From Alphaproteobacteria bacterium (lineage in GTDB: Bacteria > Pseudomonadota > Alphaproteobacteria > Rs-D84), in assembly GCA_017471445.1 (NCBI GenBank), contig JAFUTJ010000015.1, forward strand, positions 25,352 through 89,351: 64,000 nucleotides of DNA, written 5' to 3'. Made by a program: the position numbers and the translations under genes. Position 1 is the stretch's first letter. The number at the start of each line of letters is the position of its first letter. Under the pieces are notes generated by a model, which was given only the letters and a program-made list of their open reading frames with translations, was not told the origin of the DNA and did no database searches. Positions 2,237 to 46,630 of the stretch are shown piece after piece.

Positions 2237-3151
2237 ATTTTGTTAGGATTATTATGGTTAATGGCCGCAACATTGGGGGGCTGTTTTTGGTTTAATACAT
2301 ACTTTGGATTTAATATTTTTTCGGTTCAGCATTGGCAATACCTGGGGTATGTTCAGGCAAATCACATTGCAATTAAACCGATGTTTTATATTTCTTTGGT
2401 TGTGGTTGGATTGATATTGATGGGTGGCATTTACTTTATATTGCGCCCACGGATGCGCCGAATTGTTCTGCCTGTGCGTGCGAAACATGATTTTAGCACA
2501 AACGATTCCACGCCACCATTAATGCACAACCCATATGATGGAACCGTAACAAACAATACTGGCCCCATCGCGCCAACATCAGAATTATCACCAACAAAAC
2601 CAAATGTGCCGATAAATACGCATACACCCACAACATTGCGGCCCCCACGCCTGAATATGCCAATCATATCACCAACAAACACGACCACAATACATAATAC
2701 GGCCCCTGCCCCGGCGCAACAGTCGGCGGCCTCGGATACGCCAGACATGTCACCAGACATCGAATCGATTTTTAGCGATAATGGTTATATAATAAAGCCA
2801 AGACCAAGAATCGGTGCCATAAAGACAAGTTTGTTTGCAATTGGTACAGACGATGTTTTATGGGTTGGCGGTTACGCCATTGACGCCGCAAAAATGCAGG
2901 CAGCCGTTGACCAGTTACAGGGTGTGTTTGATGATTTCTTGGAAGATGCAGAAATTGATGTACGCGCATTTGTGGTTGCACCAACCGCCCGCGAAAACGC
3001 AGACCAAGTTATGATATTTAACGACATGAATGATTTACGTGAATATATAACACAAAATCCAAATCCACCACTGGACGCGGATGAACGCGATAACTTTGAT
3101 TCATATTCTGACTTTATAACAACCGTCGCAGAATACATAGGCAAGATATAA
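2198..3151 (+). CDS. Membrane-anchored hypothetical protein with Pro/Thr-rich linker and C-terminal globular domain
   Basis: It has two N-terminal TM segments (LLGLLWLMAATLGGCFWF; FYISLVVVGLILMGGIYFIL), a low-complexity P/T/N-rich stretch, and a C-terminal domain of about 130 aa. Its stop overlaps the next start (TAATG). Confidence 0.5.
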   Translation: MIQLKHMKNNFEHILLGLLWLMAATLGGCFWFNTYFGFNIFSVQHWQYLGYVQANHIAIKPMFYISLVVVGLILMGGIYFILRPRMRRIVLPVRAKHDFSTNDSTPPLMHNPYDGTVTNNTGPIAPTSELSPTKPNVPINTHTPTTLRPPRLNMPIISPTNTTTIHNTAPAPAQQSAASDTPDMSPDIESIFSDNGYIIKPRPRIGAIKTSLFAIGTDDVLWVGGYAIDAAKMQAAVDQLQGVFDDFLEDAEIDVRAFVVAPTARENADQVMIFNDMNDLREYITQNPNPPLDADERDNFDSYSDFITTVAEYIGKI

Positions 3152-4305: not shown

Positions 4306-4449
4306 TGGTTATTGGTTGTTGGTAAATCGTGGCTAATTCCTGATTTGTTTATCAGAACGCTGTCATTTTCCGGCCTGATGACCGGGAAAGCCCAGTTAAT
4401 AAAAAATGCCGCGCACGAAATGCGCAGGCAGATACTATTAACTATTCTC

Positions 4450-5343
4450 TTAATTTGTTGGTACCAATTTTCCGCCCTGCATCTTTACTGCACTAATCCA
4501 ACATGTTGCGCCATTGCGTGGAACCGCCATGGCGTATTTTGTATGCTTTTCCGCATAAATATTTATGCCATTCATTGCCGTTTCGCCAATCCGACACAGC
4601 GGCAGGCACCGTCCATCACTTGTATGCCCATACCCCGCATCGCATTCCCAACAATCACGCGGTGTTAATGCGGTACCAGATACCCCCGGCATATTGGCAT
4701 AATGTGAATTTGGTGGCATATTTGTACAATCACGTATACCGGTGCAAATATAATTTTTTGTACTTCGACTATCACATCCATATATTTCGACCGCACCCGT
4801 AATTGGGTCATTATAGTATTCTTGTATGATATATGCGTTTTGTGAATCTGAATAAAACGCCTCGGCAAAAATACTGTTATGGTCGTCTGCGACCTTAAAA
4901 TTGTAATAACATTCTGTTATGTTTTTGGCGGTTAAAGACTTCGTTCGTGGCACCTTATAAACTGCAAACAAATAAATATCATTATAATCTTTGTAATATA
5001 CTTCCCATCCCCATGTTTTTTTGGGACATTCATATCGCGTATCATCCCCCGGGCAATAGCCGTATGCGACTTCTTTGTGCAGAACCACATCATTACATGT
5101 AATACATCTACCGTTTGACAAATAATACCCGGCATCGCATGTTGCAGCATTGGCAACGCCAATGCTGCAACAAAGTGCAATGAGCAGAGAACAAAAAGTA
5201 ATTTTTAATTTACACGCATGCCTTGTATGCGGATTTTTATTCACCCAGATTCCACGGTCAGGCCATAGAATTACATCAAATATTTTTTGCATCGTTGCTT
5301 TTTTGGATACAACTGAACTCTGAACACTGACAACTGTTGTCAT
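4450..5343 (-). CDS. Secreted cysteine-rich protein, family A paralog 1 (conserved C-terminal module)
   Basis: Signal-peptide h-region FCSLLIALCCSIGVANA. The mature N-terminus is ATCDAGYYLSNGRCITC. The C-terminus CWECDAGYGHTSDGRCLPLCRIGETAMNGINIYAEKHTKYAMAVPRNGATCWISA..QGGKL is shared with two other genes. RBS GGGGGA lies before the ATG at 5343. Confidence 0.75.
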   Translation of the reverse strand: MTTVVSVQSSVVSKKATMQKIFDVILWPDRGIWVNKNPHTRHACKLKITFCSLLIALCCSIGVANAATCDAGYYLSNGRCITCNDVVLHKEVAYGYCPGDDTRYECPKKTWGWEVYYKDYNDIYLFAVYKVPRTKSLTAKNITECYYNFKVADDHNSIFAEAFYSDSQNAYIIQEYYNDPITGAVEIYGCDSRSTKNYICTGIRDCTNMPPNSHYANMPGVSGTALTPRDCWECDAGYGHTSDGRCLPLCRIGETAMNGINIYAEKHTKYAMAVPRNGATCWISAVKMQGGKLVPTN

Positions 5344-5377
5344 AATTTCCCCCTTTCTGTTTCACGAATAAAAAATT

Positions 5378-5484
5378 CCGCGATGAAAAGCGCGGTCAGG
5401 GTGTTCAGAAAATCAAATCACACAATGACTCCTGTGGTCTTTTGCATTGCATTATAACCACAGGCACCCCAACCAAAATTAGGG
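5378..5484 (-). promoter_or_regulatory. Conserved structured 5' leader element of family A genes (copy 1)
   Basis: About 105 nt align position by position with 13245-13344, the same distance from the start codon. There are three helices with compensatory changes: CCTGTGG/CCACAGG versus CCATCGG/CCGTTGG; CCGCG/CGCGG versus CCGCA/TGCGG; CCCUAA/UUGGGG with a G-U wobble versus CCCCGA/TCGGGG. Confidence 0.5.
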
Positions 5485-5597
5485 ACATTAATATCGATGC
5501 AAAACATGGAATATTCTTTGAATTACGATGTTCGGCATCGGTGTGATAAAGGCTTTCTGACAGCCCCAAGGTTGATTTCCATCAAACCTTAATAAGT

Positions 5598-11138: not shown

Positions 11139-11336
11139 TTCGCTGTAAACCAATGTTATATATCGGTTACGATAACAATCCAACATAATACACGACGCAA
11201 ATATAACAAAATATATATCGGAACAATTTGGTATTGGAAAATACATATCTGTCCCCCCACCCAACAGAATTATATTCTGTCATGCATTTTATCCTGAAAC
11301 ACACCAAGAATGAATTTTCCCAGGGTGGCATGTGAA

Positions 11337-12338
11337 CTAATTCACCATCTGTAATTTCCCGCCCTGCCCCCGTTTTGCATTAATCCAACACGTTGCATCG
11401 CCGCGTGGTACCGCCATGGCGTATTTGGTATGCTTTTCGGCGTATATATTTATTCCGTTCATTGCGGTTTCACCAATCCGGCACAGTGGTAAACACCGGT
11501 CATCGGATGTGTGACCGAATCCATCATCGCATTCCCATGGGCAATTTGGTGTGCCATCGGTTGTATTTGCGGCGGTATAGTGTGCATTTGCCGGTGCGTT
11601 TGTGCATGGCATGCAATCTGATGCCGCGGCGGCGGTATCCGTTGCCGTATACGTGCCAACCGGACAATTATTAGTTAACGTCACAACATCAGATGAATAA
11701 TAACCCCAACCAACAGGAATACATTTTATATTTGCCGCATCATCAAAACTCTTAAATGTCATATAATAATAACTTAAATTACTATAATTCGTTAGTGTCC
11801 TAAAATTAAACCAATACCCTGTATCACAAATCGGGAAACGCTGAATAGACGATGTTAAATTAAAATTACATTTATATGTTGCATTAACAGATGTAAAAGA
11901 AGAATTGGTGTCATTGTATGCGCATGAAAAATAACTGTATCCATGGTCAATTTTTACAACAAAATTAACTTCACAACGGGTAATGGATTCAACGACATTA
12001 TCACCATTAACCCACGAACTATACTTGTGTAAATAATCTATATGGTCTGAATCAATTTCTGGGCATCGCATTCGTAAATCATTACCTGGACAATAATACG
12101 ATGGTGTTTCACCATTACTGCGATTACATGGTTGGCACGTGCCCGTATCATCCAACCAATACCCCGCATCACACGTTGCGGCATGGGCATTGGTTAACAT
12201 GCACATGCCAAACACCACACCCCATGCACCAAAAAACCACCGTTTTTTGTGCACGGGTAAAGGAAAATAAAATGGCGGATTTCTGGGGCTTTGTAAAAAA
12301 CAATTTGTGCACCAAAAAACGGTGGTTTTTTGGTGCAC
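11337..12338 (-). CDS. Secreted cysteine-rich protein, family A paralog 2
   Basis: It starts on GTG at 12338 with AGGGAAAT as RBS. An alternative GTG start at 12254 would give a clean signal peptide, (V/M)HKKRWFFGAWGVVFGMCMLTNAHA. The mature N-terminus is ATCDAGYWL..C..C. The C-terminal 70 aa are nearly identical to paralog 3. Confidence 0.7.
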   Translation of the reverse strand: MHQKTTVFWCTNCFLQSPRNPPFYFPLPVHKKRWFFGAWGVVFGMCMLTNAHAATCDAGYWLDDTGTCQPCNRSNGETPSYYCPGNDLRMRCPEIDSDHIDYLHKYSSWVNGDNVVESITRCEVNFVVKIDHGYSYFSCAYNDTNSSFTSVNATYKCNFNLTSSIQRFPICDTGYWFNFRTLTNYSNLSYYYMTFKSFDDAANIKCIPVGWGYYSSDVVTLTNNCPVGTYTATDTAAAASDCMPCTNAPANAHYTAANTTDGTPNCPWECDDGFGHTSDDRCLPLCRIGETAMNGINIYAEKHTKYAMAVPRGDATCWINAKRGQGGKLQMVN

Positions 12339-12403
12339 GGCTTATTTCCCTGTACGCCACGTATTGTAACGCATTGGGCGATTTTTTTCAATATGTTTTT
12401 TAA

Positions 12404-13207
12404 CTAATTTACCGGAACCAATTTACCACCCTGCCCCCGTTTTGCACTAATCCAACATGTTGCGCCACCGCGTGGTACGGCCATGGCGTATTTGGTATGC
12501 TTTTCGGCATATATGTTAATACCGTTCATTGCGGTTTCACCAATCCGACACAGTGGTAAACACCGGTCATCGGATGTGTGACCGAATCCATCATCGCATT
12601 CCCACGGGCAATCGTTTGCGTCCTTAATTGTGCCATCCACACTATCTGGTGTACCGGGGCCGGTATAGTGCGCATTTGCCGGCGCGTTGGTGCATGGTTT
12701 TACGCCATTGTACCAAACTTTATACGTGGTACTTCTATATGGCGATAGATAATAACCGGTTCCCGCCTCATAATAATATACGCATCTAACGGGGTATTCT
12801 TGCTTGGTTGTGTCGTATGCAACCTCTGACAGGCAACTATAATTCTTAAAAACAAAAAATGTATGGCGCCAACAGTTTGTAATTTTGGAACGCGCCGCCT
12901 GTGACGAACCGTCATACGTAAATCCTGTGCCCCAAGAAGACACTCCGGGCCTCAACTCCTCTATGAAAGTATCATCAAGAAACTGGTCATATTTTCCAAT
13001 ATATTTATCTTCGGGGCATTCGTATCTGATATCATCACCCGGACAATAATATGCATTTTCGCAATATGTACATTCGTTTTCAGTATTCAGATAAAAATTT
13101 GCCGGACAATTTGCGGCGCGGGCCGTGCCGACACCGCCAAACGCCACCAGCGCAAAAATCGCCATACCGCAAATTTTACGTTTATTATAACATATAAATC
13201 TTGTCAT
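12404..13207 (-). CDS. Secreted cysteine-rich protein, family A paralog 3
   Basis: Signal peptide MTRFICYNKRKICGMAIFALVAFGGVGTARA. Mature N-terminus ANCPANFYLNTENECTYC. The conserved C-terminal module is CPWECDDGFGHTSDDRCLPLCRIGETAMNGINIYAEKHTKYAMAVPRGGATCWISAKRGQGGKL. RBS GGGGGA. Confidence 0.75.
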   Translation of the reverse strand: MTRFICYNKRKICGMAIFALVAFGGVGTARAANCPANFYLNTENECTYCENAYYCPGDDIRYECPEDKYIGKYDQFLDDTFIEELRPGVSSWGTGFTYDGSSQAARSKITNCWRHTFFVFKNYSCLSEVAYDTTKQEYPVRCVYYYEAGTGYYLSPYRSTTYKVWYNGVKPCTNAPANAHYTGPGTPDSVDGTIKDANDCPWECDDGFGHTSDDRCLPLCRIGETAMNGINIYAEKHTKYAMAVPRGGATCWISAKRGQGGKLVPVN

Positions 13208-13244
13208 GATTTTATTCCCCCATTTGGTTTATTAAAATTAAACA

Positions 13245-13344
13245 CCGCAATGAAAATGCGGTCGGGGTGTAAGAAAATCACAATCAAGAATGATCCCAAC
13301 GGTCTTCGATATATAACCGATGGCACCCCGACCAAAATCGGGGG
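13245..13344 (-). promoter_or_regulatory. Conserved structured 5' leader element of family A genes (copy 2)
   Basis: It aligns with 5378-5484 and shows covariation in three helices (details under the copy 1 feature). Confidence 0.5.
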
Positions 13345-13510
13345 TATATACAATAACCGGCGCACACCGCGCCATTATTGCAACGGATTCAATACGTATT
13401 TGCACGTATCAACTTGATTGTGGACTTTCTTAGGGTCCCGAACCCAATTCCCATTGGATTCAGAATTATTTTAACGTAAACCAAGTATTAAACACAAGGT
13501 AATTTAGATA

Positions 13511-26844: not shown

Positions 26845-27525
26845 ATGGCATACATGTGGAACGAATTCAATATAAAACCAATACGTGCGGAAACAATTGT
26901 TTACCGCGATGGTGTATTTTTACCAGACGTGTCAACAATTGAAAACGGGCCAATTAACCGTAAATATGGATTGCCGGTACATGTTATTTATGTTGGTGAA
27001 ATTACCGGCGAAAATGCATTAAATATTGAAATAAACATTGAAAACCAACCGGTGTTTTTATCGGTAAACATAACAAATAAAACACCAACAATTTTTAATA
27101 TTTTTGTAAAAAATACCGGTAAAAAATCTGACTTTCGCGCGCACGTAATGTTAAATAATTCGGGTGAATTAAATTACCAATGCACGGCGCACCACACGGC
27201 CCCAGAAACAACAATTTTATTTCAGACAAAATTAATTGCCAACCGCGATTCAAAATCTAAAATTGCCGGCACGGCAATAATTGATAAAAATTGCGATGAT
27301 TGTATGTCCGACATCGGGTTTACCGCAATGGCAGACCGTTCGGCAAAAATATCATTTTTACCGGCCCAACGAATATTATCTGTACCACAACGGGCCGACC
27401 ATGGTGCGGCAATATACCGCCCAACCGATGCCCAGGTTTTATATTTGCGTGAATCCGGCCTATCCGGGGCAGAGGTTGATGATACCATGAAAGTGGCGTT
27501 CATGAACGATTTCGATTTATTCTGA
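26845..27525 (+). CDS. SufB/SufD-family protein (short, stand-alone)
   Basis: The C-terminus PTDAQVLYLRESGLSGAEVDDTMKVAFMNDF resembles the conserved SufB/SufD C-terminal helix (eQLFYLrSRGisEeeA...). No sufBC genes are adjacent. Confidence 0.45.
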   Translation: MAYMWNEFNIKPIRAETIVYRDGVFLPDVSTIENGPINRKYGLPVHVIYVGEITGENALNIEINIENQPVFLSVNITNKTPTIFNIFVKNTGKKSDFRAHVMLNNSGELNYQCTAHHTAPETTILFQTKLIANRDSKSKIAGTAIIDKNCDDCMSDIGFTAMADRSAKISFLPAQRILSVPQRADHGAAIYRPTDAQVLYLRESGLSGAEVDDTMKVAFMNDFDLF

Positions 27526-28449
27526 TTCCCGCCCATAAATAAATTCACTGGTACCGGAATTTTGGTGGAATTTTTGTTCCATCATGTCCCACATACCGTT
27601 ACTGGGCACCGTGTAATCGCCGATTCGTAATCCCGCCGGCACCGGAACCATGGTACGAATAATATCGTTAGAACGGCTGATGGTTATATCATATAGTTTT
27701 GCGATTGTTTTTGTATCACTGCTCGGATGAAGTAAAGTTATATTCTTGTCATTACCGTCAAAGTCAAAATAATTTATGTTTCTTACAACATCATCAAATA
27801 TAATATATCCAGAATTATTATAATTAAACATCAATGTGTATTTGTGATTCATAACAAGTTCATTAACCGATAATACCGGATTAGAATAACCAGAACCAGG
27901 CCCATAACCACAGGTAAATAACGTAACCCCATTATTGGTTCCACAATAAAAATGCGGGGAATATGTCGCAAATATTGGCGATGCCAGTTCGGTCAATTGA
28001 ATATATGCAAAATGCGTTTTAACGCCAACATTGTTTGCAGGGACAACATTTGTGCGAATTAATTGTTCACCGCTTGATTGAATATACACATCTGGGTCGG
28101 CATTAATCAGTTTACCGCCCGCAATTGTGTACCATGGACTGTAATCTGCGTGTAATACAATGTCGTGCGTATATGCGTACGGAATTGTTGTATTTGATGT
28201 AATAATTGTGTCACTGTCACCCACACGCCATGCGGGCGCATTGTTACAACCAACACCGGTTGTAAAGTTATTACCATACGCGGTGCTTTGTTGTGTTGGG
28301 GCATTCCCACCCGCCGGACAATCGTATGTTACGGTATATTGTTTCGGTATACAGAACTTTACATTTTCTGGTAATTCGGCATTTGCATTTGCCCAGAACA
28401 ACATCAAACCAAACAACACAGAAAACAACGATGATAATTTGTGTGTCAT
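27517..28449 (-). CDS. Secreted protein, family B paralog 1
   Basis: It starts at MTHKLSSLFSVLFGLMLFWANANA (signal peptide). Residues 1 to about 115 are nearly identical to 45659-46630. The rest is homologous but diverged (PHFYCG, FNYNNSG.IIFD, VPxGLRIGxYxVPxNGM, IYGR). Confidence 0.75.
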   Translation of the reverse strand: MTHKLSSLFSVLFGLMLFWANANAELPENVKFCIPKQYTVTYDCPAGGNAPTQQSTAYGNNFTTGVGCNNAPAWRVGDSDTIITSNTTIPYAYTHDIVLHADYSPWYTIAGGKLINADPDVYIQSSGEQLIRTNVVPANNVGVKTHFAYIQLTELASPIFATYSPHFYCGTNNGVTLFTCGYGPGSGYSNPVLSVNELVMNHKYTLMFNYNNSGYIIFDDVVRNINYFDFDGNDKNITLLHPSSDTKTIAKLYDITISRSNDIIRTMVPVPAGLRIGDYTVPSNGMWDMMEQKFHQNSGTSEFIYGRESE

Positions 28450-28690
28450 ATCTTTTTTTCCTCCCTGTTCCTTTATTTTTTCTAATAAAAAATATCCCAC
28501 GCGAAAACCGCAGTGGTTGGAGGTTCATAACTACAATAAGGTATAGCGGGCCTATTCAATATATTCAGCACCCCTCCAACCAAATTTAGATTGGAGATTT
28601 ACTATCGCCGCCCATACGGCAATACCTTATTTCAGGGTTATGACGCCCCAACACGTGCGAACACGCGTCGCGATAATATTAAATCATATT
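28450..28690 (-). promoter_or_regulatory. Conserved 5' leader of family B genes (copy 1) with long hairpin GGTTGGAGG...CCTCCAACC (28515-28581)
   Basis: Immediately upstream of the ATG, 74 nt are identical to 45585-45658. A 9-bp inverted repeat encloses about 50 nt. Further upstream similarity extends to the GCGACG...TGGGGCGTCA block. Confidence 0.45.
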
Positions 28691-28734
28691 TTAGAATAAA
28701 ACCACCATAATTTAGAATCTGTGGCAAAACATTT

Positions 28735-45316: not shown

Positions 45317-45439
45317 GATTTCTCCTTTGTATTATAGGCTCAGAATAGACAAAAATCCCCCATATGTAAAGGGTTTTCTGAATACATAGAATTTGTGTAA
45401 TTTACTTGTATTGTTACGATATTTGGTGATATTATTTTC

Positions 45440-45658
45440 TTGATGCGACGTATTGTCGCATTGGGCGTCAGAACCCATAGAGGTGTCGGGATTACACCGA
45501 CAATTAAAATTCCAGCCGGCTATTTATCGGTTGGAGTGTGTGGAATATTTAGAATAACACACGCAATTCCTCTAATTGTTCTGAAGCTCCAACCACTGCG
45601 GTTTTCGCGTGGGATATTTTTTATTAGAAAAAATAAAGGAACAGGGAGAAAAAAAGAT
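45440..45658 (+). promoter_or_regulatory. Conserved 5' leader of family B genes (copy 2) with hairpin GGTTGGAG...CTCCAACC (45529-45594)
   Basis: The 74 nt before the ATG are identical to copy 1, and the upstream GCGACG...TGGGCGTCA block is shared. It contains the RBS GGAACAGGGAG. Confidence 0.45.
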
Positions 45659-46630
45659 ATGACAGGCAAATTATCATCATCGGTGTTTTATGTGTTGTTT
45701 GGTTTGATGTTGTTCTGGGCAAATGCAAATGCCGAATTACCAGAAAATGTAAAGTTCTGTATACCGAAACAATATAGGGTAACATACGATTGTCCGGCGG
45801 GTGGGAATGCGCCAACACAACAAACCACCGCGTATGGTAATAACTTTACAACCGGTGTTGGTTGTAACAATGCGCCCGCATGGCGTGTTGATGACAGTGA
45901 CACAATAATTACATCAAATACAACAATTCCATACGCATATACGCACGACATTGTATTACACGCAGATTACAGTCCGTGGTACACAATTGCGGGCGGACGG
46001 CTGATTAATGCCGATGCGGATGTGTATTTAAACAACAATCTTTCTGCATACGCATCATATGGCATTGATACGGGTGTAATGTCCACAAATAATATCGGAT
46101 GGGCAATTAATTTTACATATGAACAATTCAGAAATAGCGAAACACCAGAACATATTATTGGAACAATGTTCCCACATTTTTATTGTGGAATTGATACGGC
46201 CCATACTGGTTTTCTTTGCGCCTGTGGCCCAGAGGCCGGTTATGGAAACGGCATTGAAAACTACACAAATATGATTGTCGGCAAAAAATACAATCTGTTA
46301 TTTAACTATAATAATTCTGGCAAAATTATTTTTGATTACACGACCAATCTTGATTTATCGTGCACAGAATTGAATAACACGATTGGTAACACAATACGTT
46401 TGTTTCGTTCAACATCACAAAACGTAAATGCAACCAGCACGAATAATTATAGCATGGCAAAAATATATGATGTAAAAATCAGCGATGGCCAAACAATGAT
46501 TCGTAATTTTGTGGCGGTACCGTCGGGTCTGCGCATTGGTAATTATATCGTTCCAAAAAACGGCATGTTTGATATTGTTGAACAGAAATTTTATCAACCT
46601 GTTGCGAATATGATATATGGGCGCGATTAA
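45659..46630 (+). CDS. Secreted protein, family B paralog 2
   Basis: The start is at MTGKLSSSVFYVLFGLMLFWANANA (ATG at 45659, RBS GGGAG). The ORF-track start at 45440 is an in-frame upstream extension through the leader. The N-terminal 115 aa are nearly identical to paralog 1. Confidence 0.75.
   Translation: MTGKLSSSVFYVLFGLMLFWANANAELPENVKFCIPKQYRVTYDCPAGGNAPTQQTTAYGNNFTTGVGCNNAPAWRVDDSDTIITSNTTIPYAYTHDIVLHADYSPWYTIAGGRLINADADVYLNNNLSAYASYGIDTGVMSTNNIGWAINFTYEQFRNSETPEHIIGTMFPHFYCGIDTAHTGFLCACGPEAGYGNGIENYTNMIVGKKYNLLFNYNNSGKIIFDYTTNLDLSCTELNNTIGNTIRLFRSTSQNVNATSTNNYSMAKIYDVKISDGQTMIRNFVAVPSGLRIGNYIVPKNGMFDIVEQKFYQPVANMIYGRD

Follow-up and report, generated by a model that had tools for sequence, protein, structure and literature searches.

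The region 45440-45658 of the window, that is, of the whole 64,000-nt stretch of contig JAFUTJ010000015.1 (Alphaproteobacteria bacterium, lineage Rs-D84) analysed here, lies upstream of a gene encoding a signal-peptide protein and probably belongs, as its two covarying folds suggest, to an undescribed family of bistable transcription-attenuator RNAs that form the 5′ leader of the mRNA. In one fold (State A), a multibranched domain is followed by a complete intrinsic terminator, while in the other (State B), one helix arm would exchange its partner and open the base of that terminator. Such a switch would control termination, and an effector would shift the balance between the two states. The parts of an attenuator are found in the leader, including a predicted promoter upstream and start codon downstream, a terminator, and an exclusive alternative helix with a short terminator overlap.

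Architecture and covariation of the leader

An earlier note on this DNA had described a long inverted repeat with GGTTGGAG(G)/(C)CTCCAACC arms in the leaders of two paralogous genes, referred to here as copy 1 and copy 2. This repeat is real, as the pattern GGTTGGAG-N(30-60)-CTCCAACC matches the 64 kb twice, at 45529-45594 and 28515-28581, where shuffled sequences are expected to give no match. The arms of copy 2 are 8 nt long and enclose 50 nt, and those of copy 1 are 9 nt long (GGTTGGAGG/CCTCCAACC) and enclose 49 nt. The inner GTGTG/CACAC stem reported for copy 2 is present as well (TGTGTG at 45537-45542 pairs with CACACG at 45558-45563), and so are the identical 35-nt block 3′ of the repeat in both copies (CCACTGCGGTTTTCGCGTGGGATATTTTTTATTAG) and the second shared block further upstream (GGGCGTCA.AACCC, two occurrences versus 0.05 expected). 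According to the same note, the loops differ while the stems are kept; the stems are indeed kept, but the loop does not vary freely, for it contains a conserved 15-nt block (GAATATTTAGAATAA / GAATATATTGAATAG). The repeat was also thought to lie directly 5′ of the ribosome-binding site (RBS), where in fact a terminator-like hairpin with a T-run (45593-45625) intervenes. The two leaders are located as follows:

45440-45658, + strand: copy 2 leader, 5′ of the coding sequence (CDS) 45659-46630
28450-28690, − strand: copy 1 leader, 5′ of CDS 27517-28449

Segment-wise comparison of the two copies gives a mosaic pattern, with 99% identity from arm 3 (the right arm of the repeat) to the ATG, apart from a single indel in the A-run that follows GGGAG, 93% in the initial 142 nt of the CDS, 49% over the 5′ part of the leader (45440-45586), and 41% in the DNA upstream of 45440. 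At L001, the copy 1 locus in another strain, positions 2700-3060 join the copy 1 leader to the copy 2 signal-peptide sequence (compared with window 28400-28700 (−) and 45590-45700 (+)). These sequences provide evidence of gene conversion between paralogs over the identical 3′ leader block; recombination thus does even out the sequence between arm 3 and the beginning of the coding region.

The copy 2 leader comprises the following parts, from promoter to start codon:

45406-45435, + strand: predicted sigma-70-type promoter (-35 TTGTAT at 45406-45411, 18-nt spacer, -10 TATTAT at 45430-45435)
45442-45462, + strand: 5′-terminal hairpin H0 (GAUGCGAC / GUCGCAUU, loop GUAUU), present in the minimum free energy (MFE) structure of copy 2
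45463-45483, + strand: 5′ strands of the closing helices, P0 (GGGC, 45463-45466), P1a (UCAGAAC, 45468-45474) and P1b (UAGAGG, 45478-45483)
45484-45502, + strand: hairpin Pa (UGUCGG / CCGACA), helix 5, covarying in the family
45510-45536, + strand: hairpin Pb, arm 1 UUCCAGCCG (45510-45518) with arm 2 CGGUUGGAG (45528-45536)
45537-45563, + strand: hairpin Pc, the inner stem mentioned above (UGUGUG / CACACG), with the 15-nt loop GAAUAUUUAGAAUAA at 45543-45557; the stem covaries
45569-45589, + strand: 3′ strands of the closing helices, P1b (CCUCUA, 45569-45574), P1a (GUUCUGA, 45578-45584) and P0 (GCUC, 45586-45589)
45586-45594, + strand: arm 3 (s3), the right arm of the repeat, (G)CUCCAACC; its State B partner is arm 2 (45529-45537)
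45593-45625, + strand: intrinsic terminator from a terminator scan, CCAC(U)GCG - GUUUU - CGCGUGG, then GAUAUUUUUUAUU
45644-45661, + strand: Shine-Dalgarno (SD) sequence GGGAG (45644-45648) and start codon ATG (45659-45661) of CDS 45659-46630, which encodes a 323-aa signal-peptide protein

The predicted promoter of copy 2 carries an extended -10 TG at 45427-45428, and its -10 box ends 22 nt before position 1 of the covariance model (see below), which is the modal distance. The predicted transcription start site (TSS), at about 45442-45444, is near 45440, the left boundary given in the earlier note. Arm 2 corresponds to the left arm of the inverted repeat, and Pb (helix 6) is paired in 90-96% of cells in the family. 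The last two C of arm 3 are the bottom pairs of the copy 2 terminator, which lies about 45 nt 5′ of the ATG, with no space for a separate promoter between terminator and SD sequence.

In copies 2 and 1, the U-run of the terminator is followed by a complementary A-run (UAUUUUUUAUU AGA AAAAAUAAA; 45615-45640 and 28494-28469), and in a read-through RNA the two can form a 9-bp A-U hairpin just 5′ of the SD sequence; similar pairs of U-run and A-run occur in the paralogous leaders of L009 and L004. As well, a TTG-initiated frame (45440-46630) is open through the copy 2 leader, in frame with the CDS. This frame looks accidental because it is unconserved in copy 1, and the real start is the ATG at 45659 with its SD sequence. 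A leader peptide was rejected, since the frame that is open through the copy 2 leader reaches only 17 codons upstream of the copy 1 ATG (start of the open reading frame (ORF) at 28500). No conserved start/stop pattern was seen in the family consensus, and a systematic ORF scan of all members was not made.

The genes behind copies 1 and 2 encode signal-peptide proteins of about 320 aa without a Pfam domain (family B), which have about 11 matching clusters among the 5.8 billion of a large protein database. Their homologues come nearly all from ruminant gut assemblies of one species known from metagenome-assembled genomes (MAGs), 'Alphaproteobacteria bacterium' (IJ560 locus tags). Protein-based scans of GTDB genomes and JGI metagenomes found no family-B homologues, and the family seems to be restricted to the source species. 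The contigs with paralogs contain four further distinct leaders of the same kind (L002, L003, L004, and L009), while L005-L008 carry an unrelated leader type. Plain MAFFT alignment put these leaders out of structural register, and a covariance model was therefore seeded from copy 2 alone with its fold and iterated.

State A is the unconstrained MFE structure of all six paralogous leaders, whose 5′ parts are only about 49% identical. It consists of the 5′ hairpin H0, the closing helices P0-P1a-P1b, a junction with Pa, Pb (arm1:arm2) and Pc, and then the terminator with its U-run. Instead of a simple hairpin, as the earlier note had it, the main covarying fold is multibranched, closed by P1a/P1b and followed by an intrinsic terminator. 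The two strands of P1a read TCAGAAC/GTTCTGA, TCATAAC/GTTATGA, TAACGAC/GTCGTTA, TTAAGAAC/GTTCTTAA, TAAGAAA/TTTCTTA, and TAGACAA/TTGTCTA across the paralogs, those of P1b range from TAGAGG/CCTCTA to CATAACAAAC/GTTTGTTATG, and Pa, Pc, and the terminator likewise vary yet stay complementary. With their own strands, the six paralogs are paired at 97-100% of positions in P1a, P1b, Pa, Pc, arm2:arm3, and the terminator, and at 88% in Pb; with strands swapped between paralogs, mean pairing drops to 39-69%.

The covariance model R1 was built from copy 2 alone with the State A structure, and R2 from 51 R1 matches. R1 found the other paralogous leaders and, in L006, a seventh one that precedes the gene of another cysteine-rich secreted protein. 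Homologues were retrieved with a DNA pattern for arm 2 and the Pc loop, GGTTGGRG-N4-9-GAATAYNTNGAATA, which fixes both elements, so that their conservation in the wide set holds by construction. The pattern gave at least 114 matches in GTDB species representatives and at least 120 in metagenomes. Among the genome matches listed, nearly all are from MAGs named Candidatus Enterousia, 'Alphaproteobacteria bacterium' or 'Rickettsiales bacterium', which were obtained from ruminant, chicken, human, deer, and toad guts and often contain several matches each. R1 identified 101 full-length matches in the first 100 loci, and R2 identified 112 and 99; with some overlap between the sets and a small number of matches that are weak or on the reverse strand, there are about 200 full-length copies overall. 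None of the few pattern matches in other phyla matched R1 or R2.

In two family alignments, 92.8% and 90.5% of the cells are paired, versus about 70% in shuffles and 35-47% when the partners are slid by 1-3 columns. Changes on both sides affect 41 and 39 of 45 pairs (984 and 1079 cells), and none of 500 shuffles reaches the observed values. The P1a and P1b pairs are 98-99% paired by all four Watson-Crick types in comparable numbers, and the terminator helix is 88-90% paired, with covariation in seven of its seven pairs and a U-run consensus behind it. A structure-blind mutual-information scan yielded hardly any pairs outside State A and placed model pairs in all of the top 14 positions. Moreover, G-U pairs are frequent (e.g., 80 at a single P0 pair), and the reverse strand scores much lower. 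The covariation across copies that the earlier note had proposed to look for is present in the paralogous leaders as well as in the family alignments, in pair counts and in mutual information, and the covarying arms, among the paralogs and about 200 homologues, bear out its view that the pairing matters.

The H0 position is occupied by a hairpin throughout the family, usually with the loop G(K)GUU and with stems that differ but are complementary (mean MFE −9.4 versus −4.3 kcal/mol in shuffled sequences). Among members with the copy 1 and copy 2 kind of Pc loop (type 1), junction strand j5 has 5 nt in 77 of 104 and the Pc loop 15 nt in 87 of 104, while the junction sequences are weakly conserved. 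The mutual-information scan also showed a covarying pair outside the model in one alignment (A9), between columns 226 and 251 of junction strands j5 and j6 (U-A 49, A-U 31); this pair might lengthen P1b or reflect a contact within the junction.

Of 196 elements, 146 (74%) are preceded by a sigma-70-type promoter in which 9 or more of 12 positions match, with TATAAT as the commonest -10 and TTGCAA as the commonest -35 sequence. In 130 of the 196, the end of the -10 box lies 22-24 nt upstream of model position 1, and because of this fixed distance the predicted start falls at the foot of H0 and the whole structure would be transcribed. The dedicated, transcribed leader proposed in the earlier note thus has a conserved, predicted sigma-70-type promoter in its favour. 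Downstream, an SD sequence and a start codon with an ORF of at least 60 aa follow 69% of the elements, at a median of 18 nt past the model end, compared with 11% of random positions. Such genes are expected to depend on read-through, because there is no room for another promoter. In addition, some loci contain tandem arrays of two to four complete units with no ORF between them. Four units, each with its own promoter and terminator, precede a gene in L159:174-1007 (+), three are found in L165:262-1015 (+), and pairs occur in L103:3412-3768, L091:751-1174, and L086:2776-3121.

The competing helix of State B

Arm 2 (GGUUGGAG) is the 3′ strand of Pb inside the junction, and arm 3 (CUCCAACC) is located directly 3′ of P1a, so that pairing the two crosses P1. 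The arm2:arm3 helix is missing from the MFE structure of all six paralogs, and forcing it costs 3-17 kcal/mol. It nevertheless comprises 9-10 bp and is essentially perfect in every paralog. In diverged copies, arms 1, 2, and 3 change in concert: they read CCCGACC / GGTCGGGG / CCCCGACC in L004, ATGCCCCG / GTCGGGGTGT / ACACCCCGAC in L002, and CCCCGA / GGTCGGGGTG / CACCCCGACC in the copy at 13.3 kb of the window.

The flanking pair, which lies outside the retrieval pattern, is G-C in 72, U-A in 15, U-G in 6, C-G in 1, and G-U in 1 member and mismatched in 2, i.e., 98% paired versus 64% expected. On alignment A9, the ten-pair State B helix is 94.3% paired, six of its ten pairs show double changes, and 0 of 500 shuffles match it. 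One single position has 102 A-U, 6 G-C, and 3 G-U pairs, another 81 G-C, 13 U-A, and 8 U-G pairs, and in six of the nine cases with G in place of A in arm 2, arm 3 carries C. In the mutual-information scan, arm2(+1):arm3(-1) is the top-ranked predominantly canonical pair outside the model (97% paired). To judge from these substitution patterns, the arm2:arm3 pairing is clearly under selection.

In about 96% of members, the two C-G pairs at the base of the terminator use the last two C of arm 3. When 110 members were folded under constraint, 4.8 of 6.7 model pairs of the terminator persisted with State A enforced, against 1.0 with State B enforced, and State A was the more stable fold in 87-91% of these members. 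A pseudoknot of arm2:arm3 with P1 was rejected on geometry, with linkers of 0-2 nt (arm 3 to the P1a base, arm 2 to Pc) across a helix of about 15 bp, and we infer that States A and B are mutually exclusive. An H-type pseudoknot between the Pc loop and a downstream AUUC motif was rejected as well; its linkers would not be long enough, and copy 1, L003, and L009 lack the motif.

Proposed mechanism, rival explanations and known systems

In the proposed mechanism, transcription would start from the dedicated sigma-70-type promoter about 15 nt before the conserved GGG. In State A, P0, P1a, and P1b would close the junction with Pa, Pb, and Pc, and arm 3 would stay free or weakly paired, leaving the terminator complete and the genes OFF. 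In State B, arm 2 would swap arm 1 for arm 3, which would exclude P1, remove the two to three bottom terminator pairs by the U-tract, and permit read-through (ON). Because State A is the thermodynamic default, the genes would be expected to turn ON when a trans factor or some co-transcriptional event keeps P1 open, so that arm 3 can take the place of arm 1; alternatively, a ligand might lock State A and keep the genes OFF. A protein or RNA partner was rated about as likely as a small-molecule ligand, because conservation sits in the doubly constrained arms and the Pc loop rather than in the junction strands. The stronger conservation of the arms, compared with the other helices, is to be expected if each must fit two partners.

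Several points weigh against attenuation. State B and the terminator share only 2-3 nt (1 nt in L002), with which antitermination is still plausible, and given the mean energy advantage of State A, about 7-11 kcal/mol, State B might be rarely populated. Poor conservation, as seen in the junction strands, is unusual in a metabolite aptamer, and the tandem units without ORFs are explained by a stand-alone RNA no less well than by a pure leader. Moreover, the promoter, TSS, terminator, folds, and switching are all in silico predictions, the wide set was retrieved by a pattern that fixes arm 2 and the Pc loop, and the family alignments were fitted to the model structure.

The unit of about 190 nt could instead be a gene for a stand-alone small RNA (sRNA) that acts in trans, as a protein sponge or by base pairing, with read-through being secondary. 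We consider this unlikely, though it explains well that the units have their own promoter and an efficient-looking terminator, that State A with an intact terminator is the thermodynamic default, and that arrays of two to four units lack intervening ORFs; the conserved 15-nt Pc loop and anti-SD-like CUCC motifs could then be interaction sites. What it accounts for poorly is that 69% of the units have a same-strand SD sequence and start codon within about 18 nt (11% at random), for which read-through is needed, and that a covarying helix eats into the terminator base, which is hard to explain for a pure sRNA. The roles of sRNA and leader are compatible, and the former may be a second role rather than an alternative. 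Considerably less probable is an element acting at the DNA level, in which the palindrome CTCCAACC...GGTTGGAG with a third CTCCAACC would be an operator for the small XRE-type helix-turn-helix (HTH) proteins encoded downstream, a recombination site, or a repeat like miniature inverted-repeat transposable elements (MITEs). In its favour, sequence conservation in the arms greatly exceeds that in the other helices, small XRE-type HTH proteins are the products of at least 12 of 82 genes downstream, the many copies of the element are dispersed among housekeeping genes, and copy 1 has a weak Rfam match to the integron-derived sRNA-Xcc1 (26.8 bits). But arm conservation is also expected from the two-partner constraint, and helices without sequence conservation keep pairing through four Watson-Crick types and G-U, as is characteristic of RNA and specific to one strand. 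The distance from arm 1 to arm 2 differs by up to about 10 nt, ill-suited to a dimeric HTH operator, the orientation is fixed relative to promoter and gene, the arms come in the opposite order (GTT...AAC) to attC core sites, and the match to sRNA-Xcc1 reaches half its gathering threshold.

Specific candidates of this DNA-level kind were rejected accordingly. An HTH operator is at odds with the variable arm spacing, the frequent G-U pairs, and the fixed orientation, and a mobile repeat of the MITE or repetitive extragenic palindromic (REP) type with a 5′ part that is 49% identical with pairing kept and with fixed orientation and fixed distances to promoter and start codon. An integron attC site was rejected because the repeat reads GGTTGG...CCAACC, with GTT first, on both strands; the window copies lie singly between housekeeping genes, e.g., yajC-secD and ybaB-pnp. 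Finally, it is hardly credible that the upstream similarity has no function of its own and is a by-product of recent duplication or gene conversion. The stretch from arm 3 to the RBS and the N-terminal coding region are 93-99% identical, and L001 combines parts of both copies. The 5′ 150 nt, on the other hand, are about 49% identical with every helix kept, which refutes duplication as the sole explanation, the outcome that the earlier note had favoured, and about 200 homologues with the same covarying structure precede unrelated genes in other species. That an alignment artefact produced this structure is argued against by the unconstrained single-sequence folds and the mutual-information scan.

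Taken as a bistable attenuator, the leader appears to represent a new RNA family of a known regulatory kind, the terminator-based leader switch. An Rfam 15 scan of the whole window at gathering thresholds matched only a tRNA, and scans of four members with E values up to 10 gave chance-level matches to miRNA, snoRNA, and similar families, with no family matched. The sRNA-Xcc1 match (RF02221; copy 1 at 28507-28581, 26.8 bits, E = 0.012) was rejected, as it reaches half of the 53-bit gathering threshold in copy 1 only; copy 2, L058, and a type-2 copy (see below) have no such match. No other bacterial non-coding RNA family was listed by Rfam among the sub-threshold matches to the repeat region. 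Full-text literature searches on Enterousia or Rs-D84 with riboswitch or structured RNA found no description.

Among known systems, the leader resembles terminator riboswitches, and by type of regulon the c-di-GMP-I/II (GEMM) class most closely, in having a covarying 5′ untranslated region (UTR) domain with a long-range P1-type closing helix, a directly following terminator, a competing alternative helix, tandem copies, and many copies per genome before extracellular or surface proteins and regulators. It differs in that it matches neither GEMM nor any other Rfam 15 family, conserves a terminal loop and the switching arms while its junction strands are poorly conserved, and has units with their own promoter even inside tandem arrays. 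Similar to the four-segment attenuators of the trp/his type (1:2, 2:3, 3:4), GGG(s0):arm3 and arm1:arm2 versus arm2:arm3 would decide on the terminator; unlike them, the leader lacks a conserved leader peptide, overlaps the terminator by 2-3 nt, and forms a large multi-branch domain in one state.

In BglG/SacY targets (the ribonucleic antiterminator, RAT), ANTAR targets, PyrR, and TRAP systems, a trans factor bound to a conserved hairpin or loop tips the balance of terminator control, as one could do in the leader; the leader has no RAT sequence, paired hexaloop hairpins, or UAG/GAG repeats. As for riboswitch-derived or decoy sRNAs such as SreA and EutX/Rli55, copies of the leader that stand alone and are terminated might serve as decoys, a role in keeping with its tandem ORF-less units. 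The attC sites have their core elements in the order R'' RYYYAAC ... R' GTTRRRY and belong to cassette arrays adjacent to intI, whereas in the leader, as compared with sRNA-Xcc1 and attC RNAs, the core-site order is reversed and there is no integron array or integrase context. Rickettsia palindromic elements, REP, and Correia elements or MITEs are multi-copy palindromic repeats. The leader is likewise a palindromic, multi-copy, intergenic unit of about 150-200 nt in small alphaproteobacterial genomes, but its sequence diverges with pairing kept, and its orientation is fixed relative to promoter and start codon. Inspection by eye, without a systematic search, showed neither terminal inverted repeats nor target duplications at the leader.

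Further copies, downstream genes and host

The window holds four copies of the leader, and the species at least 8-9 distinct loci. Besides copy 2, these are:

28484-28690, − strand: parts of copy 1, with -10 TATTAT at 28678-28673, arm 2 GGUUGGAGG at 28581-28573, arm 3 CCUCCAACC at 28523-28515, and terminator at 28516-28484
13232-13470, − strand: third copy, type 2, with arm 2 GGUCGGGGUG at 13333-13324, arm 3 CACCCCGACC at 13269-13260, and terminator at 13261-13233; 5′ of CDS 12404-13207
5362-5590, − strand: fourth copy, type 2, with arm 2 GGUUGGGGUG at 5474-5465, arm 3 CACCCUGACC at 5403-5394, and terminator at 5395-5367; 5′ of CDS 4450-5343

Copy 1 scores 85 bits with R1 and 113 bits with R2. 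The third and fourth copies were recognized from a weak R2 match at 13230-13395 (−) and from reading the sequence there and upstream of the paralog 4450-5343; their MFE structures have the same architecture, with z = −7.3 and z = −4.4, respectively. Type 2 has a different Pc loop, with GGUYGGGGUG as arm 2 and CACCCYGACC as arm 3.

In the earlier note, the leader was regarded as a second, independent leader dedicated to one protein family. This does not hold, for the paralogs 4450-5343 and 12404-13207 carry a variant of the same RNA, the type-1 copy in L006 precedes a relative of those proteins, and the class precedes many unrelated genes across Rs-D84. The leader subtype is not tied to a protein family, because the proteins downstream of type 2 resemble the one behind the type-1 leader in L006. 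On these sequences, the leader is best described as a module rather than a family-specific feature.

Most of the downstream genes encode orphan proteins, of which many are rich in cysteine and have signal-peptide-like N-termini (judged by eye); a glycosyltransferase and an ABC transporter also occur beside the small XRE-type HTH proteins, of which there are at least 12 among 82 products. Almost nothing is known about gene regulation in Rs-D84 or Ca. Enterousia, which are uncultured, have genomes of less than 1 Mb, and are thought to live off partner cells in animal and human guts (PMC12306168). The leader marks the predicted transcription starts of the genes most likely to mediate contact with host or partner (secreted, cysteine-rich proteins and XRE regulators), and with four copies in 64 kb and at least 8-9 loci in the species, it may govern an appreciable part of the genome. 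To RNA biology it adds a new candidate switch, whose two folds are each backed by covariation and would exclude one another, and for annotation, it defines 5′ UTRs, start codons, and a candidate Rfam family. More tentatively, and with some doubt, it is possible to speculate that the leader is an orphan class of sensor RNA, either a genuine riboswitch or a target with an RNA-binding factor of its own, which as the main regulated 'promoter plus leader' cassette of Rs-D84 / Ca. Enterousia would switch much of the secretome and the XRE regulators by one signal, with tandem copies serving as decoys or serial gates.

The element was also found on 4 of 2.9 million IMG/VR contigs (L248:12035-12201, L252:783-949, L251:8456-8621, and L253:5482-5688), which may be prophages or phages of Enterousia; a phage origin of the element was rejected on account of this low number. 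In L248, the element precedes a secreted protein and is near phage-like genes (a possible methyltransferase and a PLD-family nuclease, judged by eye).

A second, unrelated leader type was observed at 12340-12420 (−) of the window, upstream of CDS 11337-12338, and in L005, L006, and L008, where the genes start at position 3001. It consists of a sigma-70 promoter (TTGAAA/TTGCCA - 17 nt - TACAAT/TATGAT) followed by GGCGTACAGGGAAATAAGCCGTGCACC-A6-CCACCGTTTTTT-GGTGCACGG, and its hairpin stops just 5′ of the SD sequence. Finally, a 211-nt direct repeat is present in three copies that are 72-100% identical (window 4448-4658, 11335-11545, and 12402-12612), and it corresponds to the conserved C-terminal coding end (...CRIGETAMNGINIYAEKHTKYAMAVPR...) of three cysteine-rich secreted paralogs.

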